NCBI GenBank assembly: GCA_964594835.1
Contig: CAZQNA010000005.1
Coordinates: 1-64,000 of the forward strand
DNA from: an uncultured Nitrososphaerota archaeon
GTDB lineage: Archaea > Korarchaeota > Korarchaeia > Korarchaeales > Korarchaeaceae
Direction: 5' to 3'
Length of the DNA: 64,000 nucleotides
A program made the translations under genes and the position numbers. The first letter of the stretch is position 1. Each line of letters opens with the position of its first letter. A model generated the notes under the pieces. It searched no databases. It was not told the DNA's origin and worked only from the letters and a program-made list of their open reading frames with translations. Shown in pieces: positions 46,981 to 55,833 of the stretch.

Positions 46981-47814
46981 GTGGTCTCGGTCAGGGGGGT
47001 CGCGCCGGTCCTCGCCGTCCTGGCGCTCTCGCTCAGCGCGGCGCCGGCCTGGGGAGAGCCGTCTGGCTGCAGGGTCACGCTCTACGAGGACGGGTGGGCC
47101 CTGGTTACCGTGACCTGGAACTCGGAGGGGCTGGTGAGCGCGGTCCCCCTGCTCCCCGGCGCCAGGTCGATCCTCGTCACCGACGAGGGCGGCGGGCTGC
47201 CCGAGTACAACGTCACCGACGGGACGCTCATCGTCTTGGAGTCTCCGGGCTCGATCAACGTGACCTACGAGACGCAGGGGATCACATCCAAGGAGGGAGA
47301 CGTCTGGACGGCGAACCTCTCGGTTGAGCTCGGGACCTGCGAGGTGATCATGCCCAGGGGATCGATACTGGTCGGGATGTCGGAGCTGCCCGCCGCAGTC
47401 ACTTCGGTGGACAACAGGACGGTGGTGTTCATGGAGACTCCCTGCTGGGTCTCCTACGTCATGGCGACGAGGTCGCGGGGCCCGCAGGCGGGGAGGGGCT
47501 CGAGCCTCTGGCCCGCGGCGGCAGCCGGGCTGGCCCTCGCCGCGGCGATCCTGGCGCTCTCGCTCAGGACTCGCCGGAGGGAGACCAGAGAGAGGCCCCC
47601 GCTCTCGTACGACGACATTGCGCTGCTCAGGAAGCTCGATCAGATGGGGGGAGAGGCCTACCTCTCTGAGCTCAGGGCGGCCCTGGAGATGCCGAAGACC
47701 ACCGTGTGGAGGAGGGCCAGGAGGCTGAGCGAGGGCGGCCTCGTGGAGATGGTGAAGACCTCGAGGGGGAGCCTCCTCAGGATCACCGAGGAGGGCAGGA
47801 GGGTGATCTCCTGA
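46981..47814 (+). CDS. Membrane-anchored protein with extracellular beta domain and cytoplasmic winged-helix domain
   Basis: Signal peptide, beta-rich domain, TM (WPAAAAGLALAAAILAL) and wHTH LSELRAALEMPKTTVWRRARRL. Confidence 0.8.
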   Translation: MVSVRGVAPVLAVLALSLSAAPAWGEPSGCRVTLYEDGWALVTVTWNSEGLVSAVPLLPGARSILVTDEGGGLPEYNVTDGTLIVLESPGSINVTYETQGITSKEGDVWTANLSVELGTCEVIMPRGSILVGMSELPAAVTSVDNRTVVFMETPCWVSYVMATRSRGPQAGRGSSLWPAAAAGLALAAAILALSLRTRRRETRERPPLSYDDIALLRKLDQMGGEAYLSELRAALEMPKTTVWRRARRLSEGGLVEMVKTSRGSLLRITEEGRRVIS

Positions 47815-50171
47815 CGGCGGGCGTCAGGCTCGCGAGGGTCAGGCTGAGGAACTTCAAGTCGTTTCGGTCCGCCACCATAGAGTTCCCTTCCGACCTGACC
47901 GCGATAACCGGGCCCAACGGGTCCGGCAAGTCGAACGTCATGGAGGCCGTCATGTTCGCCATGGGGGCCAGGGGGAGCTGGCTCAGGTCGCAGGGGCTCA
48001 GGGGGCTGATCAGGAAGGGGGCGTCGAGCTGCTCCGTGGAGCTGACCCTCAGACACGAGGGCGGGGCGCTCAGGCTGGAGAGGAGGATAACTCGATCCGG
48101 CGGGACGTACAGGCTCAACGGCAGGGTGGCCTCGGCCAACGAGGTCAGGGACGCGCTTGCGGAGCTCGGCCTGAGGGCGGACGGACACAACTTCGTCAGC
48201 CAGGGGGAGGTCACGGCGGTGATAGAGGCCACCCCGAGGGAGAGGGCCGCGCTGATACTCGAGATAAGCGGGGTCGAGGAGTTTGAGAGGAGGAGAGAGG
48301 AGACCCTGAGGGAGCTCGAGAGGGTCGAAGAGCGCATCAAGGTGCTGAGGGCGCTTCAGAGAGACAGGCTGGAGAGGCTGGAGTTCCTGAAGAGGAGGGC
48401 CGAGGCGTACCATCAGAGGAGGGAGCTGGAGGAGAGGCTGGCCTCCCTGGAGAAGGCCGTCATTCTCAGGAGACTCGAGTCGGCCGAGAGGGCGCTGAGT
48501 GAGCTTCAGCCCCCAGAGGCACCTCCCATATCGGAGGACGAGATAGAGGAGCTGAGGAGGGAGGTCAGCAGGGCCGAGGCGGAGCTAAGAAGGCTGGAGG
48601 AGTCGGAGGATCTGAGGAGGGCCAGGGAGGCGGCGAACATCAAGGCCCGCCTGTCCACCCTCCGAGAGAGGCTGAGGTCGCTCGAGTCTGAGATAGAGGG
48701 TGTGAGGTCCCTCCTCTCTACCATGGGCGCCTCCCCCCCGCCGAGGTTCGTGACGGAGCACCCGGACTACGTGGGGATCGTCGCGGAGCTGGTCCGACCC
48801 CTGGAGGGGTACGAGATGGCCTTCAGGGCGGTCGCCGGGGCGAGGGTCGGAGACGTCGTGGTAAGGACCCTGGAGTCCGGGATAGAGATCGTGAAGTCCC
48901 TCAGGAACTCTCGCCTGAACAGGAGGATCAGAGTACTCCCCCTAGACGTCCTCAGGCCCCCGAGGCGGGTGGACCCCCCGGAGTACTCGATCGGCCTCCT
49001 CAGAGACTACGTCTCCGCCGAGCCCGGCATGGAGGGCCTCGTCGGGGCGATCGTGGGGAACGCCGTCCTCGTCGAGGACCTGGACGCGGTCCCCAAGGCC
49101 GACGTGGGGAGGTACCGGTTCGTCAGCCTGCGGGGTGAGATAATCGAGAGGGATGGCAGCCTCCTCTCCTCCCCCCCGTCTCCGTCCCAGGAGAGGAGGC
49201 TCAGGAGGAGGCTCGAGGGGCTCCTGCAGGAGAGGGACGGTGTGAGGGGGAGGATTGAGGAGCTGGAGGCCAGGGCGCGGGATCTTCCGCCGCCAGAGCG
49301 CGCGCAGGAGGTGGAGGAGGCGCTGAGGGAGGTGAGGACCAGGATAGACGAGCTCAGGAGGGAGCTAGAGGGGGCGATGAGCTCGAGGCTCGCCTACGAG
49401 CGGAGGATGCGCGCGGCCGCCGAGGAGAGGGGGAGGCTCACGCAGAGGATTGAGGAGCTTAGGGAGAGGCTCAGAGAGCTTGAGGGAGTGGAGCCCGCCC
49501 CGTCCGACGACCCAGAGTCGGAGTTCGCCGCGGCCTCGGCGAGGCTCAGGGCCATCCCGCTGGTCGGCCCCGACGTGCTGGAGGAGCTTGAGAGGGAGGA
49601 GGCGAAGGCTCGAGACCTGGAGCAGACGCTGGCCGACCTCGAGGATGCCAGAGCCTCCATCGAGAGGGCGCTGGAGGAGATAGCCAGGGAGAGGGAGAGG
49701 GTGCTGAGGGAGACCGTCGAGAGGGTGTCGAGGGCCTTCAACGAGGCCGTCGGGGAGATGTTCGGGGGGCACGGGGAGGTCTGGCTGTCTGGAGAGTGGC
49801 CGAGGCTCGAGCTGGAGGTCAGGGTGAACATCCCTGACAAGGGCGAGGTCCCGATGGAGGCCCTCTCTGGTGGAGAGAAGTCGCTGGCCGCCCTGGCGCT
49901 GATATACGCCCTCCAGAGCGTCAGGCCGAGCCCCCTCTACTTCTTCGACGAGGCCGACATGATGCTCGACGGCAGGAACTGCAAGAGGTACGCGGCCCTG
50001 CTGAGGAGGATGGTGAGCAGGGGATCCCAGGTGATCATAATCTCCCTCAAGAAGGACACCCTGGAGGAGGCGGACGCCATACTGGGCGTGAGAATGGTTG
50101 ACGGTGAGTCGAGGGTCGTGGGCGTGAGGCTCGATGAGTTCGATCGCGTCCGAGATAGTGCGAAGGGTTGA
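47811..50171 (+). CDS. smc: SMC chromosome ATPase with short arms (about 786 aa)
   Basis: LRNFKSF, GPNGSGKSN, hinge (VGIVAELV..VVV..RIRVLPLD..RFVSLRGE), LSGGEKS and YFFDEAD; probable CTG start overlapping the upstream TGA. Confidence 0.9.
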   Translation: MTAGVRLARVRLRNFKSFRSATIEFPSDLTAITGPNGSGKSNVMEAVMFAMGARGSWLRSQGLRGLIRKGASSCSVELTLRHEGGALRLERRITRSGGTYRLNGRVASANEVRDALAELGLRADGHNFVSQGEVTAVIEATPRERAALILEISGVEEFERRREETLRELERVEERIKVLRALQRDRLERLEFLKRRAEAYHQRRELEERLASLEKAVILRRLESAERALSELQPPEAPPISEDEIEELRREVSRAEAELRRLEESEDLRRAREAANIKARLSTLRERLRSLESEIEGVRSLLSTMGASPPPRFVTEHPDYVGIVAELVRPLEGYEMAFRAVAGARVGDVVVRTLESGIEIVKSLRNSRLNRRIRVLPLDVLRPPRRVDPPEYSIGLLRDYVSAEPGMEGLVGAIVGNAVLVEDLDAVPKADVGRYRFVSLRGEIIERDGSLLSSPPSPSQERRLRRRLEGLLQERDGVRGRIEELEARARDLPPPERAQEVEEALREVRTRIDELRRELEGAMSSRLAYERRMRAAAEERGRLTQRIEELRERLRELEGVEPAPSDDPESEFAAASARLRAIPLVGPDVLEELEREEAKARDLEQTLADLEDARASIERALEEIARERERVLRETVERVSRAFNEAVGEMFGGHGEVWLSGEWPRLELEVRVNIPDKGEVPMEALSGGEKSLAALALIYALQSVRPSPLYFFDEADMMLDGRNCKRYAALLRRMVSRGSQVIIISLKKDTLEEADAILGVRMVDGESRVVGVRLDEFDRVRDSAKG

Positions 50172-50712
50172 GCGCGTCCTGACGGAGTTCCGCCGGAGCA
50201 GGGACATGTCTTGGGCCGCCAGGACCCTCCACTCCCTCGCGGTGGAGCTCAGGAGACTTGCAGACTCCCTGGTGAGGATAGGGGAGGTCGAGGACCGCCC
50301 CGCGCCTCCCAGGTCTAGGCAGGCCAGGCGGGGGCCCCCAGCCCCGCTGCCCGAGCCCCTCCTCGGGAGGGTGCCGGCGCGTCGGCCGAGGCCGTCAGAC
50401 CTCTCCTCCGCCCTGGAGTGGGCGAGGAACCTCGGTAGGAGGGCGGATGACGGCCTCTCCAGGATAATCTCGGCGGCGGTCAGCCTGGCCGAGCACCTCG
50501 ACAGGGTTAGGGCGAGGCTGAGGGAGATCCTCGCCGGCTCGGGTGTTAGAGAGGTGCCGTTCAGGGAGCTCGCCAGGGACAGGTCCGAGGCCGCGGAGGC
50601 GATGGTCTCCCTCCTCCACATGGAGGCCGAGGGGGAGGTGGAGCTGGAGCAGGAGACACTTTTTGGGGAGATCCTGATCCGGGTGAGGCGGGTTGACCGA
50701 CCAGGACCCTGA
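50134..50712 (+). CDS. scpA: Kleisin ScpA-like protein (short)
   Basis: C-terminal LLHMEAEGEVELEQETLFGEILI matches the kleisin winged-helix tail; lies between smc and scpB. Confidence 0.75.
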   Translation: MSSIASEIVRRVERVLTEFRRSRDMSWAARTLHSLAVELRRLADSLVRIGEVEDRPAPPRSRQARRGPPAPLPEPLLGRVPARRPRPSDLSSALEWARNLGRRADDGLSRIISAAVSLAEHLDRVRARLREILAGSGVREVPFRELARDRSEAAEAMVSLLHMEAEGEVELEQETLFGEILIRVRRVDRPGP

Positions 50713-51157
50713 GCTGGTGATTGAGGCCGCCCTCTTCATGGCCGGGAGGCCGCTGTCGGACGAGGAGCTGGCGAGGCTGGCCGGCGTCTCGACTGAGGAG
50801 GTCCGCGAACTGATATCCAGGATCGAGAGGTTCCACCGGGGGAGGTCCATCTCGATAGAGAGGAGGCCCAGCGGCTGGTACATGACCGTCAGGCCTGAGT
50901 ACCAAGAGGTCGTCGGGAGGCTGGCCCCGAGGCCGGAGCTCACCAGGGGGGAGCTCAGGACCCTGGCGGTCCTCTTGGAGAGGGGTGGGATGTTCCTGAC
51001 AGAGCTCGCCCGGATCAGGGGTTCCTCAGCCTACAGGCACGTGAAGAGGCTGAGGAGGGAGGGGCTGGTCGGCGTGAGGAAGAAGGACGGTAAGACTTAC
51101 GCCTGGGCGACCAGGCTGGCCAGGAACTTCTTCGACGTCCCGCCCAGTCATCGATAA
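50693..51157 (+). CDS. scpB: Segregation and condensation protein B
   Basis: IEAALFMAGRPLS, ELTRGELRTLA and LARIRGSSAYRHV; tandem wHTH. Confidence 0.9.
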   Translation: MTDQDPELVIEAALFMAGRPLSDEELARLAGVSTEEVRELISRIERFHRGRSISIERRPSGWYMTVRPEYQEVVGRLAPRPELTRGELRTLAVLLERGGMFLTELARIRGSSAYRHVKRLRREGLVGVRKKDGKTYAWATRLARNFFDVPPSHR

Positions 51158-51193
51158 AAATAGGCGGCGGTAAAGCTCCTGAGGTGCTCGCCC

Positions 51194-53083
51194 CTGTCGA
51201 GTGGCGAGTCGAGCAGGGAATACGTGGTCAAGGAGCTTCAGAGGAGGGGGATCTCGGGCGAGGTCGCCCAGAACATATTTGAGAACCTTCAGATGGCTGG
51301 CATCCTCGACGCCATGGGGCTACTCCTCCTCATGACCGCGAGGGGGGACGGCATCCTCCAGAGGCTCGAGGACCTGGGCAGCCCGCAGGTCGAGGAGCTG
51401 AAGCCCAGGCTCGCGGGCATCGTTGAGAAGGTCGACGAGCTGGTAAGGGAGATGGCCTCGGACCCGGACGTCGCCTCGAGGCCCGGCCCCATCTCGCGGG
51501 CCCTGGGGAGGGCCTTCGGCAAGGGAGGGGTCGCCAGGAGGTACTCCCCCAGGATAGAGTCCCTGATGGACTCGCTAGAGGCCGTGCTCTGGGCGATAGA
51601 GGAGGAGGCCAGGAAGGTCCTCTCGAGGAAGCTGGAGAATCTTGAGTTAGACGCAAGGGAGCTCCTCTCGGCCGCAGAGAAGGGGGGGTTCTCGGAGATA
51701 GCCTCGAGGCTCAGAGAGAGCCTCGAGAAGGTGCAGGAACTCCTGAACTCTCCGCTGAAATCCTCTTCCGACCTGGAGGCAGCGCTGATAGAGACCCAGA
51801 GGGTCGACTCGGAGGTCAAGGAGATCAGGGAGGTTCTGGCCAAGTCCAAGGAGACGAGGGCGGCCCTGGCAGCCGAGCTCTCCAGGATCAGGGGTCAGAT
51901 CGAGTCTATCCACGTCAAGGCGTCCAGGATAAGGGAGACGGGCATAGACCCCATCTACATAGAGGAGTCCCTGAGGTGGGTCGAGGCCAGGATAGCCAGG
52001 ATAGAGAACAGGTGCCCTCCGGAGGACCTGGAGTGCATGGAGACCGCGCTGGTAGACCTCAGGACCCTCGAGCAGAGGGCGCTGAAGCCCCTCCTGGAGG
52101 AGATGGAGAAGCTCGAGAGGCTCAGCTCCCAGTTCGAGAACACGTTCGCCCTGATCCCGGACGCCGAGAGGGCCGCGGAGATGCTGGACAGGGAGTTCAA
52201 CACGAACGCGTTCACCGCCCTGATAGGGTCCCTGGCCGTGAGGCTCTCCTCCATCAGGGCGGGCACCGAGGTTAGAGACTCCGAGGACATAGAGAAGATC
52301 GCGGAGGAGATTTCCAGGCTCAGAGAGACCCTGGAGCTCTTGATATTCATAAAGAGGGCTGAGGAGAGGGCAGGACCCATCTCCCAGCAGCTGAGGCTCG
52401 TCACGGACGGTGACGCCGTGCTCGCGACCATCCGGGCCGCCCTCCAGGTCCCCACGATGTCGCCCGAGGAGAAGGCCCGCCAGGCCCTCGCCCCGCTGAA
52501 GGAGGTTCGGAGGAAGCTCTCCGAGTACCTCGAGGCCACCGCCGATGCCGAGAGGTTCTACCCCTACTGGAAGGAGTACGTCCTCACCCACCTCTCCGAG
52601 GCCGGGACAGCGAGGATGGAGGATCTCGTGAAGATCCCGGAGAGGTGGAGGCTCTGGGTGGCCAAGAGGCTGGAGGAGGAGGGCCTTGTTAGGCTCGAGG
52701 GTGGGGTCATCAGGCCCACCGGGCGGAGGCCGGAGCCCGCCCAGCCTCCAGAGGTCCCGGAGAGGGCGCCACCACCCCCCAAGCCCCCCGTTGAGGAGGA
52801 GCCCGTCGCCGGGCCCCCCAAGCCCGCCCCGCCGCCACCCCAGCCTGCCGCACCTCCCGCCCAGAGGGCGGAGAGACCGGCCCTACAGCCGGCCCCTCGG
52901 CCCGTTGAGGTGGCCGAGATCGCCAAGGGTCTGTCCGACCTGCTCCACCTCCTCGAGGAGAGGGTGGGCGGGCCCATCAACTCGGGACCCGCGGCCGAGC
53001 TGATGAGGCTGATCTCGAGCGGCGAGGCGGACCCGGAGGAGCTATCCGATCTGCTCAGGAGGGCGGCCAGCAGGATACCATGA
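51194..53083 (+). CDS. Long coiled-coil protein with C-terminal winged-helix-like domain and Pro-rich linker
   Basis: E/L/R-rich helical body; YWKEYVL...RLEEEGLVRLEGG; Pro-rich linker; probable CTG start at 51194 after GAGGTG. Confidence 0.75.
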   Translation: MSSGESSREYVVKELQRRGISGEVAQNIFENLQMAGILDAMGLLLLMTARGDGILQRLEDLGSPQVEELKPRLAGIVEKVDELVREMASDPDVASRPGPISRALGRAFGKGGVARRYSPRIESLMDSLEAVLWAIEEEARKVLSRKLENLELDARELLSAAEKGGFSEIASRLRESLEKVQELLNSPLKSSSDLEAALIETQRVDSEVKEIREVLAKSKETRAALAAELSRIRGQIESIHVKASRIRETGIDPIYIEESLRWVEARIARIENRCPPEDLECMETALVDLRTLEQRALKPLLEEMEKLERLSSQFENTFALIPDAERAAEMLDREFNTNAFTALIGSLAVRLSSIRAGTEVRDSEDIEKIAEEISRLRETLELLIFIKRAEERAGPISQQLRLVTDGDAVLATIRAALQVPTMSPEEKARQALAPLKEVRRKLSEYLEATADAERFYPYWKEYVLTHLSEAGTARMEDLVKIPERWRLWVAKRLEEEGLVRLEGGVIRPTGRRPEPAQPPEVPERAPPPPKPPVEEEPVAGPPKPAPPPPQPAAPPAQRAERPALQPAPRPVEVAEIAKGLSDLLHLLEERVGGPINSGPAAELMRLISSGEADPEELSDLLRRAASRIP

Positions 53084-53143
53084 GCGAGTGCCGGGGATCG
53101 TTAATATTATTCCCCCCGCCGGCCGAGCGGAAGAGGTGGCCCA

Positions 53144-54340
53144 ATGCGCTGGTTCGGGATAGGACTCGGCGGTGCGGGAGGGGCCATAATCGACAGGACC
53201 TACGACACGTTCGCTGGGGAGGCCCCCTCGGCGATGGTGGACGCCGTCGTCTTCAACACCTCCGTCTCCGACCAGGCGAAGCTCCAGGTCCTGAGGGACA
53301 GGTTCTACCTCTTTGGGAGGTTCGGGGGCGCGGGGGTGGGCGCGCGGTGGAAGGACTCCATGATGGCCATGCTGGAGCCTGAGAGCAGGGAGCTGTTCGT
53401 CCGCGCGGTCACCGAGAGGGGGATCACGGACTCGACCGCCGTGGTGCTCTCCGCGGCCCTGGGCGGGGGCACCGGGAGCGGGTCCATGCCGGTCGTGGCC
53501 GACTACGTCAGGGAGATCCTGGGCAGCGAGGGCCCCCCGACTCAGCCGGTGGTGTCCGTGGGTGTGCTCCCCTTCAAGTTCCCCAAGGAGAGCATGAGGT
53601 TCGCCTACAACTCCGTGATAGCGATGGCGAACATGCTGGGGAGGGTCGACTCACTGATACTCCTGGACAACGAGGTGGCCAGGGAGATCGTGCTGAGGGA
53701 CGAGCCTGGACTGAGCGACGAGCAGGTGCTCGACAGGATAAACTCGCTCGTGGGTCGGTGCATGATCGCCATGTCCGCCGCCGACGTGGAGCCCCTCAGG
53801 GGGGGCTACAAGACCACGTTCGACTCCCAGGACCTCAAGTCGATACTCAGGTTCTTCGAGGCCTCCCTCACGGTCCCGTGCTACATGAAGGCCAGGGTAG
53901 AGTCGGTGGGGGGTAGCCTGGAGTTCCTGACGGAGGCCGCTCTCAGGGAGGGCTGCCTGGCGGAGGTCAGGCCGAAGACGGCCCTCAAGGCGGCCCTGGT
54001 CGTCAGGGGGCCGGAGGAGTACCTCAACGTCGACGCGGTTTTCGAGGCCAAGAGGCTCCTGAGCGAGAAGATAGCCGGCGTGGACGTTAGAGAGGGGCTG
54101 GCGGTCGCCCCAGGGTCTAGACACTTTGAGATAGCCATCCTCCTTGTGGAGCCCGAGCTGGTCAGGCTCCCGTCCCTCCTCAAGGAGGCGAGGCTGTACT
54201 ACGAGGTCCACGAGGAGGAACTCACCAAGATGGAGGACACGCCTAGGGAGGAGTTCGAGTCCTACGTTCAGGCCGTGGAGAGGCACCTACTGACCGCGGC
54301 GGAGGCGAGGGAGGAGGCGGGCGCCGCCCCCTCGGCTTAA
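53144..54340 (+). CDS. FtsZ/tubulin-superfamily GTPase (CetZ/tubulin-like, not canonical FtsZ)
   Basis: GLGGAGG, signature GGGTGSG, AYNSV...LLDNE and T7-like FDSQDL. Confidence 0.9.
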   Translation: MRWFGIGLGGAGGAIIDRTYDTFAGEAPSAMVDAVVFNTSVSDQAKLQVLRDRFYLFGRFGGAGVGARWKDSMMAMLEPESRELFVRAVTERGITDSTAVVLSAALGGGTGSGSMPVVADYVREILGSEGPPTQPVVSVGVLPFKFPKESMRFAYNSVIAMANMLGRVDSLILLDNEVAREIVLRDEPGLSDEQVLDRINSLVGRCMIAMSAADVEPLRGGYKTTFDSQDLKSILRFFEASLTVPCYMKARVESVGGSLEFLTEAALREGCLAEVRPKTALKAALVVRGPEEYLNVDAVFEAKRLLSEKIAGVDVREGLAVAPGSRHFEIAILLVEPELVRLPSLLKEARLYYEVHEEELTKMEDTPREEFESYVQAVERHLLTAAEAREEAGAAPSA

Positions 54341-54381
54341 CAATTTTTAACGGAATGCGCGGCCGGCCGCGCGGGATAACC

Positions 54382-55833
54382 GTGGGGCGCCTGGACCCCT
54401 TCTTCTACCCGGATTCGGTGGCCGTGATAGGCGCATCTCGCGAGCCGGGCTCGGTGGGACACGAGCTCCTCAGGGTGATGGTGGAGAACCAGAAGAGCGG
54501 CCTCTACAGGGGGAGACTCTACGCCGTGAACCCGAAGGCGAAGGAGCCCATCCTCGGAGTGCCGACCTACCCGAGCGTCTCTGACCTGCCGGAGCCGGTC
54601 GACCTGGGCGTGATAGTGGTCCCCGCCAGGGTAGTGCCGGCCGTTGTGGACGAGTGCGGGAGGAAGGGGATCAAACACGTGATAGTGATATCCGGGGGGT
54701 TCGCCGAGGTCGGCGGAGAGGGAGTCGAGCTCCAGGAGAAGCTCGTGGAGGTCGCCAGGAGGCACGGGATCCGGATAGTCGGCCCCAACTGCGTCGGGGT
54801 CGTGTGCCCCGAGACCGGCGTGGACACGATGTTCCTCCCCTACAAGAAGGAGCTGGGAGGCAGGGGTCTGCTCTCCCTCCCGAGGCCCGGCCCAGGGAAC
54901 ATATCCCTTCTCACTCAGTCCGGCGCGTTTGGCGTGGCCTGCGTGGACTACATGGCGGGCGAGGGCCTGGGGCTGGCGAAGTTCGTCAGCTACGGCAACA
55001 AGGCGGACATAGACGAGGTGGAGCTCATGGAGTACCTGGCAGACGACCCCAAGACCAGGGTGATCGTGATATACGCCGAGTCGATCGAGGAGGGGAGGAG
55101 GTTCATCGAGGCCGCCAGGAGGACCGTCCCGAAGAAGCCCGTCGTGGTCCTCAAGGCCGGCAGAACTCGGGCGGGCGCCAGGGCGGCCAGCTCCCACACG
55201 GCCGCGCTGGCCGGGGCCGACGAGGTGTACTCGGCCGCCTTCAGGCAGGCCGGCGTCGTGAGGGTCTACGAGGTCGAGGAGCTCTTCGACGTGACGAAGG
55301 CCCTCTCCATGCAGCCCCCTGCCAGGGGGCCCAGGATAGCGGTCCTCACGGATGGAGGAGGGGCCGGGGTCATGACGGCCGACGAGCTCGAGAGCAAGGG
55401 GGCCGTGGTGGTTCAGCTCTCAGAGGAGACGCAGTCCAGGCTCAGGGAGCTGATGGACAGGGGCGTGATCCCCCCCATCTCCGCCGTCGCCAACCCTGTG
55501 GACGTCACGGGCAGCGCGACAGACGACGCCTTCGTCGAGTCCCTCAGGATCCTCCTGGACGCACCCGAGGTCGATGGGGTGATAGTGCTCCCCCTCCACC
55601 ACGTGCCGGGGCTGACCTCTGACCTCCCGGAGAGGATCGCCGCCGAGGCCAGGGGCAGGGGGGACAAGCCGGTCCTGGTGGTGGACATCGGGCAGGGGGA
55701 GTACGGGATCGCCTACAGGGAGAGGTTCGACGAGCTGGGCATCCCGGCCTACCCCACCCCCGAGAGGGCCGCGAGGGCGATGGTGGGCCTCATCAAGTAC
55801 GGAGAGGCCCTGAAGAGGATGGGCGCCCTCTGA
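54382..55833 (+). CDS. acdA: ADP-forming acyl-CoA synthetase, alpha subunit (second paralog)
   Basis: IGAS, GPNC, TQSG, SSHTAA and NPVDV. Confidence 0.92.
   Translation: MGRLDPFFYPDSVAVIGASREPGSVGHELLRVMVENQKSGLYRGRLYAVNPKAKEPILGVPTYPSVSDLPEPVDLGVIVVPARVVPAVVDECGRKGIKHVIVISGGFAEVGGEGVELQEKLVEVARRHGIRIVGPNCVGVVCPETGVDTMFLPYKKELGGRGLLSLPRPGPGNISLLTQSGAFGVACVDYMAGEGLGLAKFVSYGNKADIDEVELMEYLADDPKTRVIVIYAESIEEGRRFIEAARRTVPKKPVVVLKAGRTRAGARAASSHTAALAGADEVYSAAFRQAGVVRVYEVEELFDVTKALSMQPPARGPRIAVLTDGGGAGVMTADELESKGAVVVQLSEETQSRLRELMDRGVIPPISAVANPVDVTGSATDDAFVESLRILLDAPEVDGVIVLPLHHVPGLTSDLPERIAAEARGRGDKPVLVVDIGQGEYGIAYRERFDELGIPAYPTPERAARAMVGLIKYGEALKRMGAL

Follow-up and report, generated by a model that had tools for sequence, protein, structure and literature searches.

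The locus

The first 64,000 nucleotides of contig CAZQNA010000005.1 (hereafter the window), which is contig 5 of a 1.82-Mb Korarchaeial genome in 24 contigs, contain six + strand genes between positions 46981 and 54340. They code, in this order, for a membrane-anchored winged-helix protein (memHTH), the condensin proteins SMC, a ScpA-like kleisin and ScpB, an all-helical protein that is here called CC, and a GTPase of the tubulin superfamily that is here called Tub. A first-pass annotation of the same DNA had described these six co-directional genes as a single chromosome segregation module; all of them are present where it had placed them, and their identification is upheld by family and profile matches and by structural models. 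As it had also noted, the memHTH, smc, scpA and scpB genes overlap in a chain (by 109 nt between the canonical memHTH and smc open reading frames, or 4 nt if smc starts at a CTG codon, then by 38 nt between smc and scpA and by 20 nt between scpA and scpB), and are followed by CC and Tub after short gaps (66 nt between scpB and CC, or 36 nt from a CTG start, and 60 nt between CC and Tub). The interval is flanked by housekeeping genes and its G+C content is even. We consider with moderate confidence that it consists of two separable units, a condensin operon and a CC-Tub pair, which have been juxtaposed in one Korarchaeial lineage. The comparisons that follow cover 40 genomes of the class, including this one (G000), and the genera are designated by numbers: g1 is the genus of the window, g4 is closely related to it and g5 is Methanodesulfokora.

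The tubulin-superfamily GTPase

Within the archaeal tubulin superfamily, CetZ is the branch that is understood least. The Tub gene (53144–54340, + strand, 398 amino acids) codes for a protein that, judged from its sequence and its predicted structure, is a divergent CetZ-like GTPase. It contains the tubulin/FtsZ GTPase domain (PF00091, 2.4e-15), and it is regarded as an extra (third) paralog because two FtsZ genes elsewhere in the genome, both on contig 9, score higher (162.6 and 151.5 bits vs 59.8 bits for Tub). Its best sequence matches in the PDB are 4b46, 3zid and 4b45, that is, the CetZ proteins of Euryarchaeota (CetZ1 and CetZ2 from Haloferax volcanii are 4B46 and 4B45, and 3ZID is from Methanosaeta thermophila). 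Structural comparison gives the same picture: the Tub model (built from 16 sequences, pLDDT 93.5) finds 4b46, 4b45 and 3zid at ranks 1 to 4 (E 9.5e-25 to 5.8e-22), with E 9.5e-25 and a TM score of 0.91 on target for CetZ1 and E 7.9e-24 and 0.90 for CetZ2, at 24% identity in both cases, while FtsZ structures appear from rank 5 and TubZ (4ei7_B) only at rank 11, with a TM score of 0.68. The match to the CetZ_C family is weak (16.4 bits, below the cut-off of 21.6), and the same family is reached at E <= 0.01 by 12 of the 16 aligned Tub members; two g5 orthologs carry a precomputed PF21011 assignment, and none of the families matched by the 16 aligned members is FtsZ_C.

In a tree of 24 rows, which has an arbitrary midpoint root and includes no named reference sequences, the Korarchaeial Tub proteins form a clade (100/100) on a long stem (1.46), outside the FtsZ clade (100/100) that holds both FtsZ genes of the window's genome. 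With a support of 95/97, the Tub clade joins two further tubulin-like sequences from genome G032, of which one belongs to the CetZ_C-positive alignment set; it groups with CetZ_C-positive sequences from other archaea and follows the genera. Tub has its best matches among the CetZ proteins and shares with them the GGGTGSG motif (residues 107–113, invariant in the 16 sequences) and the acidic T7-loop residues (D227 and D230), but differs from them in its low identity (21–24%), its sub-threshold CetZ_C score, a conserved extra C-terminal helix pair, its confinement to a long-stem clade of Korarchaeia and the partner gene that usually precedes it. Relatives are scarce: a search of 5.8e9 proteins found 13 of them, one of 185,579 species genomes found 13 loci, and neither PHROGs nor PADLOC gave a match.

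Since the GGGTGSG signature is kept and both T7 acidic residues are present, filament-dependent GTP hydrolysis by Tub is plausible, and for the same reasons the formation of filaments is likely. Both T7 positions are serine in the three g2 orthologs aligned; these proteins may bind GTP without hydrolyzing it.

The CC protein

CC, the gene directly upstream of Tub, can be read from a CTG codon (51194–53083, 629 amino acids) or from a GTG codon (51224–53083, 619 amino acids; this numbering is used here). The product belongs to no Pfam or NCBIfam family. Its AlphaFold model (19 sequences, pLDDT 84.3, pTM 0.55) predicts long antiparallel helices up to about residue 460, a winged helix at about residues 445–505, a low-confidence, Pro-rich stretch and three C-terminal helices. 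The winged-helix domain (residues 445–505, positions 52556–52738) is delimited by alignments and by VIA-align, and it is the sole informative part of the structural matches obtained with this program: it superimposes on the winged helices of MarR, IclR, Z-alpha and Sso10a proteins with Z values of 8.5–9.5 and an rmsd of 1.4–2.2 Å over 56–61 residues, while the helical body matches three-helix bundles, with Z values that are common for helical proteins. W449, P472 and W475 are invariant in the CC alignment and R476 nearly so. The Pro-rich linker (residues ~502–558, positions 52727–52897), which is predicted to be disordered, reaches 43% proline over a 60-residue stretch and is present only in g1 and g4. 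No membrane anchor was found, as the protein has no hydrophobic 19-residue window.

Foldseek found no match to the CC model in the PDB at E <= 0.001, phmmer found nothing there below E 0.068, a protein atlas gave one unnamed match at 0.82 (below the level that counts), and the only hits to PHROGs and PADLOC were of 16 bits and 14 bits, respectively. A HMMER search over 1.84 billion proteins yielded a family of 14 representatives (E <= 1e-3, 238–634 amino acids); all relatives with a source name come from Korarchaeota, Thermoproteota or Methanodesulfokora and are annotated as "hypothetical protein", in one source also as "uncharacterized protein YukE". Among the proteins searched, the CC family has been seen only in Korarchaeia.

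EzrA is a spectrin-like FtsZ regulator of Firmicutes. CC resembles it (4UXV/4UY3) in size, in its all-helical composition of antiparallel bundles and in being encoded alongside a tubulin-family polymer on which it could potentially act. VIA-align gives Z values of 9.5 to 4uxv_A over 317 residues and of 9.6 to 4uy3_A, but these lie within the range common for helical proteins and the rmsd is 20 Å and 11 Å, respectively; CC also lacks the membrane anchor, carries a Pro-rich tail as well as its winged helix, and shows no detectable sequence similarity to EzrA.

TubZ-TubR(-TubY) are type III partition systems of plasmids and phages. A winged-helix gene directly upstream of a gene for a tubulin-superfamily GTPase recalls the tubR-tubZ arrangement, and by analogy an adaptor-plus-filament logic is plausible for CC and Tub; the pair could then be a domesticated partition cassette of plasmid or viral origin that became integrated in the chromosome. 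We regard this origin as very improbable. The structure predicted for Tub is closer to CetZ than to TubZ, CC is a protein of ~620 amino acids made mostly of helical bundles and not a small dimer like TubR, and the searches of PHROGs and PADLOC gave nothing for the pair beyond the two low-scoring CC hits already mentioned. The genes also stand in a chromosomal housekeeping context of even G+C content, no iteron array was found near them, and the Tub clade follows the genera. More generally, no centromere-like repeat array is present in the intergenic DNA, the repeats found being all in coding, coiled-coil-type sequence.

Conservation of the CC-Tub pair

A Tub ortholog (cut-off E <= 1e-15) is present in 16 of the 40 genomes of the class: five of g1, one of g4, four of g5, five of g2 and one of the 21 of g3. 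Linkage to CC can be judged in 14 of the 16, the locus being cut by contig ends in G002 and G018. CC lies directly upstream of Tub in ten (G000, G001, G003, G004, G008, G011, G005, G009, G012 and G015), and in one more, G007 of g4, the two are separated by a single gene. In g2 the CC stop codon and the Tub start codon overlap by 4 bp (as TTGA). Across the genera, adjacency is kept even as identity falls to 35% between Tub proteins and to about 20% between CC proteins. The neighbors beyond the pair are unrelated housekeeping genes and differ by genus, with an aminotransferase and a single-stranded DNA-binding protein (SSB) gene in g2, and a sugar nucleotidyltransferase and an IF-2B-like gene in g5.

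The gene between CC and Tub in G007 (464 amino acids, L035:7714-9108) matches no Pfam family and has no relative in the other 39 genomes of the class; it is taken as a lineage-specific insertion. G049, the sole g3 genome with a Tub ortholog (36% identity), has it on a contig of 2676 bp (C106), behind an unrelated gene of 225 codons; this contig may have strayed into the bin, or the arrangement may be a different one.

In the CC tree, the g1 and g4 proteins together, the g5 proteins (adjacent copies and unlinked orthologs of 474 amino acids) and the adjacent copies of g2 each stand apart from unlinked paralogs; a second g2 copy joins the g3 proteins (95/92), and the deep split has a support of 80/91 only. 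One of the g3 genomes (G013, a single contig of 1,590,757 bp) carries five FtsZ-family paralogs in tandem (C1:900592-906158) and, some 4 kb from them on the opposite strand, a CC-family paralog. G019 has the same arrangement, and the coordinates suggest it for G010 and G006; it was not seen in G024 and G020.

A complex between CC (residues 1–505) and Tub was predicted from input alignments of 10 and 8 rows, respectively. It obtained a score of 0.59, compared with 0.00 for the best of three controls, the runs agreed in at least 92% of contacts, and the pLDDT of the partner was at least 82; the prediction returned no interface. This is weak support: in the calibration, 58 of 80 solved complexes and 2 of 110 mismatched pairs reached the mark, but passes at 0.60 or less came from only 7 of those 80 solved complexes and from both of the mismatches that passed. 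The proposal of the first-pass annotation that the helical protein is an adaptor of the tubulin-like GTPase gains from the retention of the pair across four genera and from the overlap of the two genes in one of them, and the predicted complex adds modestly to it.

Several observations weigh against the pair as a functional unit or against its separation from the condensin genes. Three of the 14 judgeable genomes (G014, G017 and G049) show no linkage of CC to Tub, and CC paralogs without an adjacent tubulin gene exist (the second g2 copy, two more in g5 and the g3 copies), so that members of the family do not always go with Tub. The gene for the alpha subunit of ADP-forming acetyl-CoA synthetase (ACS) adjoins Tub in 11 of the 16 genomes (g1, g4 and g2), and as it has no evident functional link to Tub, adjacency can evidently be kept without one; the genomes compared are, besides, kin and not independent. 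The complex score falls in a band in which passes are more often wrong than right unless the prior is good. A link of CC to DNA is unsupported, because its winged helix is near charge-neutral (11 K+R vs 10 D+E) and because intergenic repeat arrays are missing. Finally, in the genomes in which smc-scpAB adjoins CC-Tub, both lie on the same strand with little space between the genes, and read-through transcription is therefore possible.

Some of these points would fit an explanation in which CC and Tub are neighbors by descent only, Tub being a CetZ-like protein of cell shape or of the cytoskeleton that acts on its own, and CC an independent structural or nucleic-acid-binding protein. ACS is kept beside Tub about as well as CC is, the unlinked genomes and the paralogs far from any tubulin gene are as expected, TATA-like boxes separate the two genes in g1 and g5, and the complex score is in the weak band. 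Nevertheless, mere descent accounts less well for the start/stop overlap in g2, for an adjacency that outlasts so much sequence divergence, for the null scores of the complex controls and for the CC tree, in which the proteins encoded upstream of Tub and the g5 orthologs without linkage fall into groups distinct from the unlinked paralogs (within the limits of the deep split). We therefore regard this explanation as possible but doubtful, and a dedicated CC-Tub pair is preferred.

The condensin genes and memHTH

The condensin part of the interval has the features of a prokaryotic SMC-ScpA-ScpB complex. The smc gene (47811–50171, + strand, ~786 amino acids from its probable CTG start at 47811; the longest canonical open reading frame begins at a GTG at 47706) codes for a protein with matches to SMC_N (1.3e-52), SMC_hinge (2e-18) and TIGR02169 (2.3e-122), and it is the sole match in the genome with both halves of the SMC_N head above the family cut-off. 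It is followed by the scpA-like kleisin gene (50134–50712, + strand, 192 amino acids) and by scpB (50693–51157, + strand, 154 amino acids), whose product matches SMC_ScpB (PF04079, 2e-24) and TIGR00281 (1.8e-14). The kleisin itself is barely recognizable by sequence: it has a weak match to Rad21_Rec8 (E 0.02), and a profile of five orthologs, compared with the PDB, reaches E 0.005 for the C-terminus of Rad21 and E 0.04 for the C-domains of archaeal ScpA proteins, a weak similarity in the C-terminal winged helix. Its identification as ScpA is supported by its place between smc and scpB, and the smc-scpA-scpB order is kept in g3, g5 and g6.

Unlike the usual SMC proteins, of ~1170 amino acids (the length of the TIGR02169 model), that of the window is short, a feature common to all full-length Korarchaeial orthologs (~780 amino acids, in open frames of 758–814), which implies coiled-coil arms of about half the usual length in the sequences compared. 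Strong matches of this protein in PADLOC (mad3, 3.1e-62, and LmuB) were taken as a generic likeness of SMC/ABC heads because of its hinge, its ScpAB neighbors and its orthologs across the class.

The first gene, memHTH (46981–47814, + strand, 277 amino acids), has hydrophobic stretches at residues 1–25 and 174–197 and weak helix-turn-helix (HTH) matches at residues 208–272 (HTH_27, E 5.5e-4, below cut-off). From these features, the protein is read as an N-terminal signal or anchor, an outer domain of ~150 residues, a transmembrane helix (174–197) and a cytoplasmic winged HTH domain (208–272). The family is multi-paralog, with several copies in most Korarchaeial genomes, and a copy adjoins smc only in g1. 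A paralog with 42% identity is found in the same genome (G000:C6:25102-25962), and the HTH domain resembles the Csa3/CARF-associated HTH domains of PADLOC.

Is condensin linked to the tubulin-like GTPase?

The genes scpB and smc adjoin CC in 6 of the 16 Tub-bearing genomes, all of them of g1 and g4. The order smc-scpA-scpB-CC-Tub is contiguous in four g1 genomes (G000, G001, G003 and G004), the arrangement in G002 is split between contigs but consistent with it, and G007 has smc-scpA-scpB-CC-orphan-Tub and no memHTH gene. In g5, scpB and smc are on other contigs than CC and Tub in all four genomes. In g2 (G005, G009, G012, G015 and G018), ScpB was found in none of the five genomes by protein or Pfam model searches, the Korarchaeial SMC likewise in none, and an SMC hinge in one, at a contig end; the absence of condensin from this genus is likely but not proven, because the genomes are 71–93% complete, and its loss from the whole genus is possible on this evidence.

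These distributions bear on the reading of the first-pass annotation, in which all six genes would constitute one chromosome segregation system, with condensin coupled to a tubulin-like filament and to a tether on the membrane or on DNA. In its favor, the window and five further genomes (G001 to G004, and G007 without memHTH) have the genes close together on one strand, CC has a winged-helix fold, and memHTH and smc seem to be translationally coupled through a CTG/TGA overlap. Against it, only two closely related genera show the linkage, which is seen in none of the four g5 genomes, g2 retains CC-Tub with no detectable ScpB or SMC, memHTH adjoins smc only in g1, conserved TATA-like boxes separate scpB, CC and Tub, and no centromere-like repeats were found. 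We consider a single system unlikely. Of the module proposed, the identity of the genes and the caveat about separate promoters stand and the adaptor idea has gained some ground; the coupling of condensin to the filament and the membrane tether find little support in the relatives, where CC-Tub lies next to smc-scpAB only in g1 and g4 and the CC-Tub pair itself persists in four genera. Unlinking of this kind is the first half of what that annotation had itself named as grounds for rejection.

A more restricted version can be conceived, in which a CetZ-like filament and CC were recruited beside condensin, in g1 and its sister genus alone, as a tubulin-based DNA-partition apparatus with CC bridging the nucleoid or condensin to the filament. 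It would fit the shared direction of the genes, the short gaps and the winged helix of CC, but we regard it as quite unlikely.

Promoter-like boxes and start codons

A TATA-like box, ATAAAAATA, lies at 51154–51162 (+ strand), where it overlaps the scpB stop codon upstream of CC; it is identical in G001 and G004 and similar in G003. A second one, TTAATATTATT, lies at 53100–53110 (+ strand), 34–44 nt before the Tub ATG, and is followed by an AGGTG Shine-Dalgarno-like motif; it is conserved in G001, G004 and G003, and similar AT-rich boxes precede Tub in G011 and G014 (g5). The AT-rich patches to which the first-pass annotation had drawn attention are thus real, and their conservation in genomes of the same genus supports separate promoters for CC and for Tub in this genome. 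The ACS gene (54355–55833), which begins 14 nt after Tub, is also preceded by its own conserved AT-rich box.

Both smc and CC probably use non-canonical CTG start codons, as far as the comparison of sequences indicates. In G001 and G004, smc has no ATG, GTG or TTG between the in-frame stop and the conserved N-terminus, and in all four g1 genomes compared a CTG overlaps the memHTH stop codon (CTGA) after a GGAGGGTGAT-like motif. In the case of CC, an in-frame CTG (51194) occurs 10 codons before the GTG of the window in the same four genomes, downstream of a conserved AGGTG Shine-Dalgarno-like motif, and the codons aligned with that GTG are GTG, GTC, GTC and ATA. The length of about 629 amino acids given for CC in the first-pass annotation corresponds to the frame that opens at the conserved CTG (51194), the GTG (51224) giving 619.

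A probable two-unit locus and its meaning

In the two-unit explanation that we favor, the first unit would be a condensin operon (smc-scpA-scpB) of the ordinary Korarchaeial kind, which codes for a short-armed SMC and is tightly coupled in g1 to the upstream memHTH gene. The second would be the Korarchaeia-specific CC-Tub pair, in which each gene appears to have its own promoter in this genome. Tub would most likely form GTP-dependent filaments, and CC, which is elongated, soluble and all-helical and has a single winged-helix domain, would most likely bind these filaments as a dedicated adaptor or bundler and link them, through the winged helix or the C-terminal tail, to a second target, either DNA or another protein. 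The proximity to condensin would be a local, derived arrangement and not a conserved functional coupling. Candidate functions of the pair are shape, positioning or DNA handling.

The published accounts of this branch of the superfamily, in the passages covered, describe other settings. The cetZ neighborhoods of Euryarchaeota contain pilus, cofactor and sugar-epimerase genes (PMC9856176), and the part of that article covered contains neither "Korarch" nor "SMC"; CetZ-like groups are described in PMC9871819, whose covered text also lacks "Korarch"; and the FtsZl1 and FtsZl2 families have other partners (PMC2875224). The searched literature contains no description of the CC family or of the CC-Tub pairing, which within that scope is previously undescribed.

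The analysis removes the attractive but weakly founded claim of a "spindle-like" link between condensin and a tubulin in an archaeon. Should the recruited partition apparatus, against expectation, prove to be real, it would be the first case in an archaeon of chromosome segregation driven by a tubulin. Of more interest than the juxtaposition with condensin is the CC-Tub pair itself. To our knowledge, no dedicated partner protein of CetZ is known, nor did one appear in the portions of the papers searched. Here, one Korarchaeial clade is tied to CetZ by structure, and a candidate partner gene usually lies directly upstream, so that CC and Tub offer a concrete, testable two-protein system.

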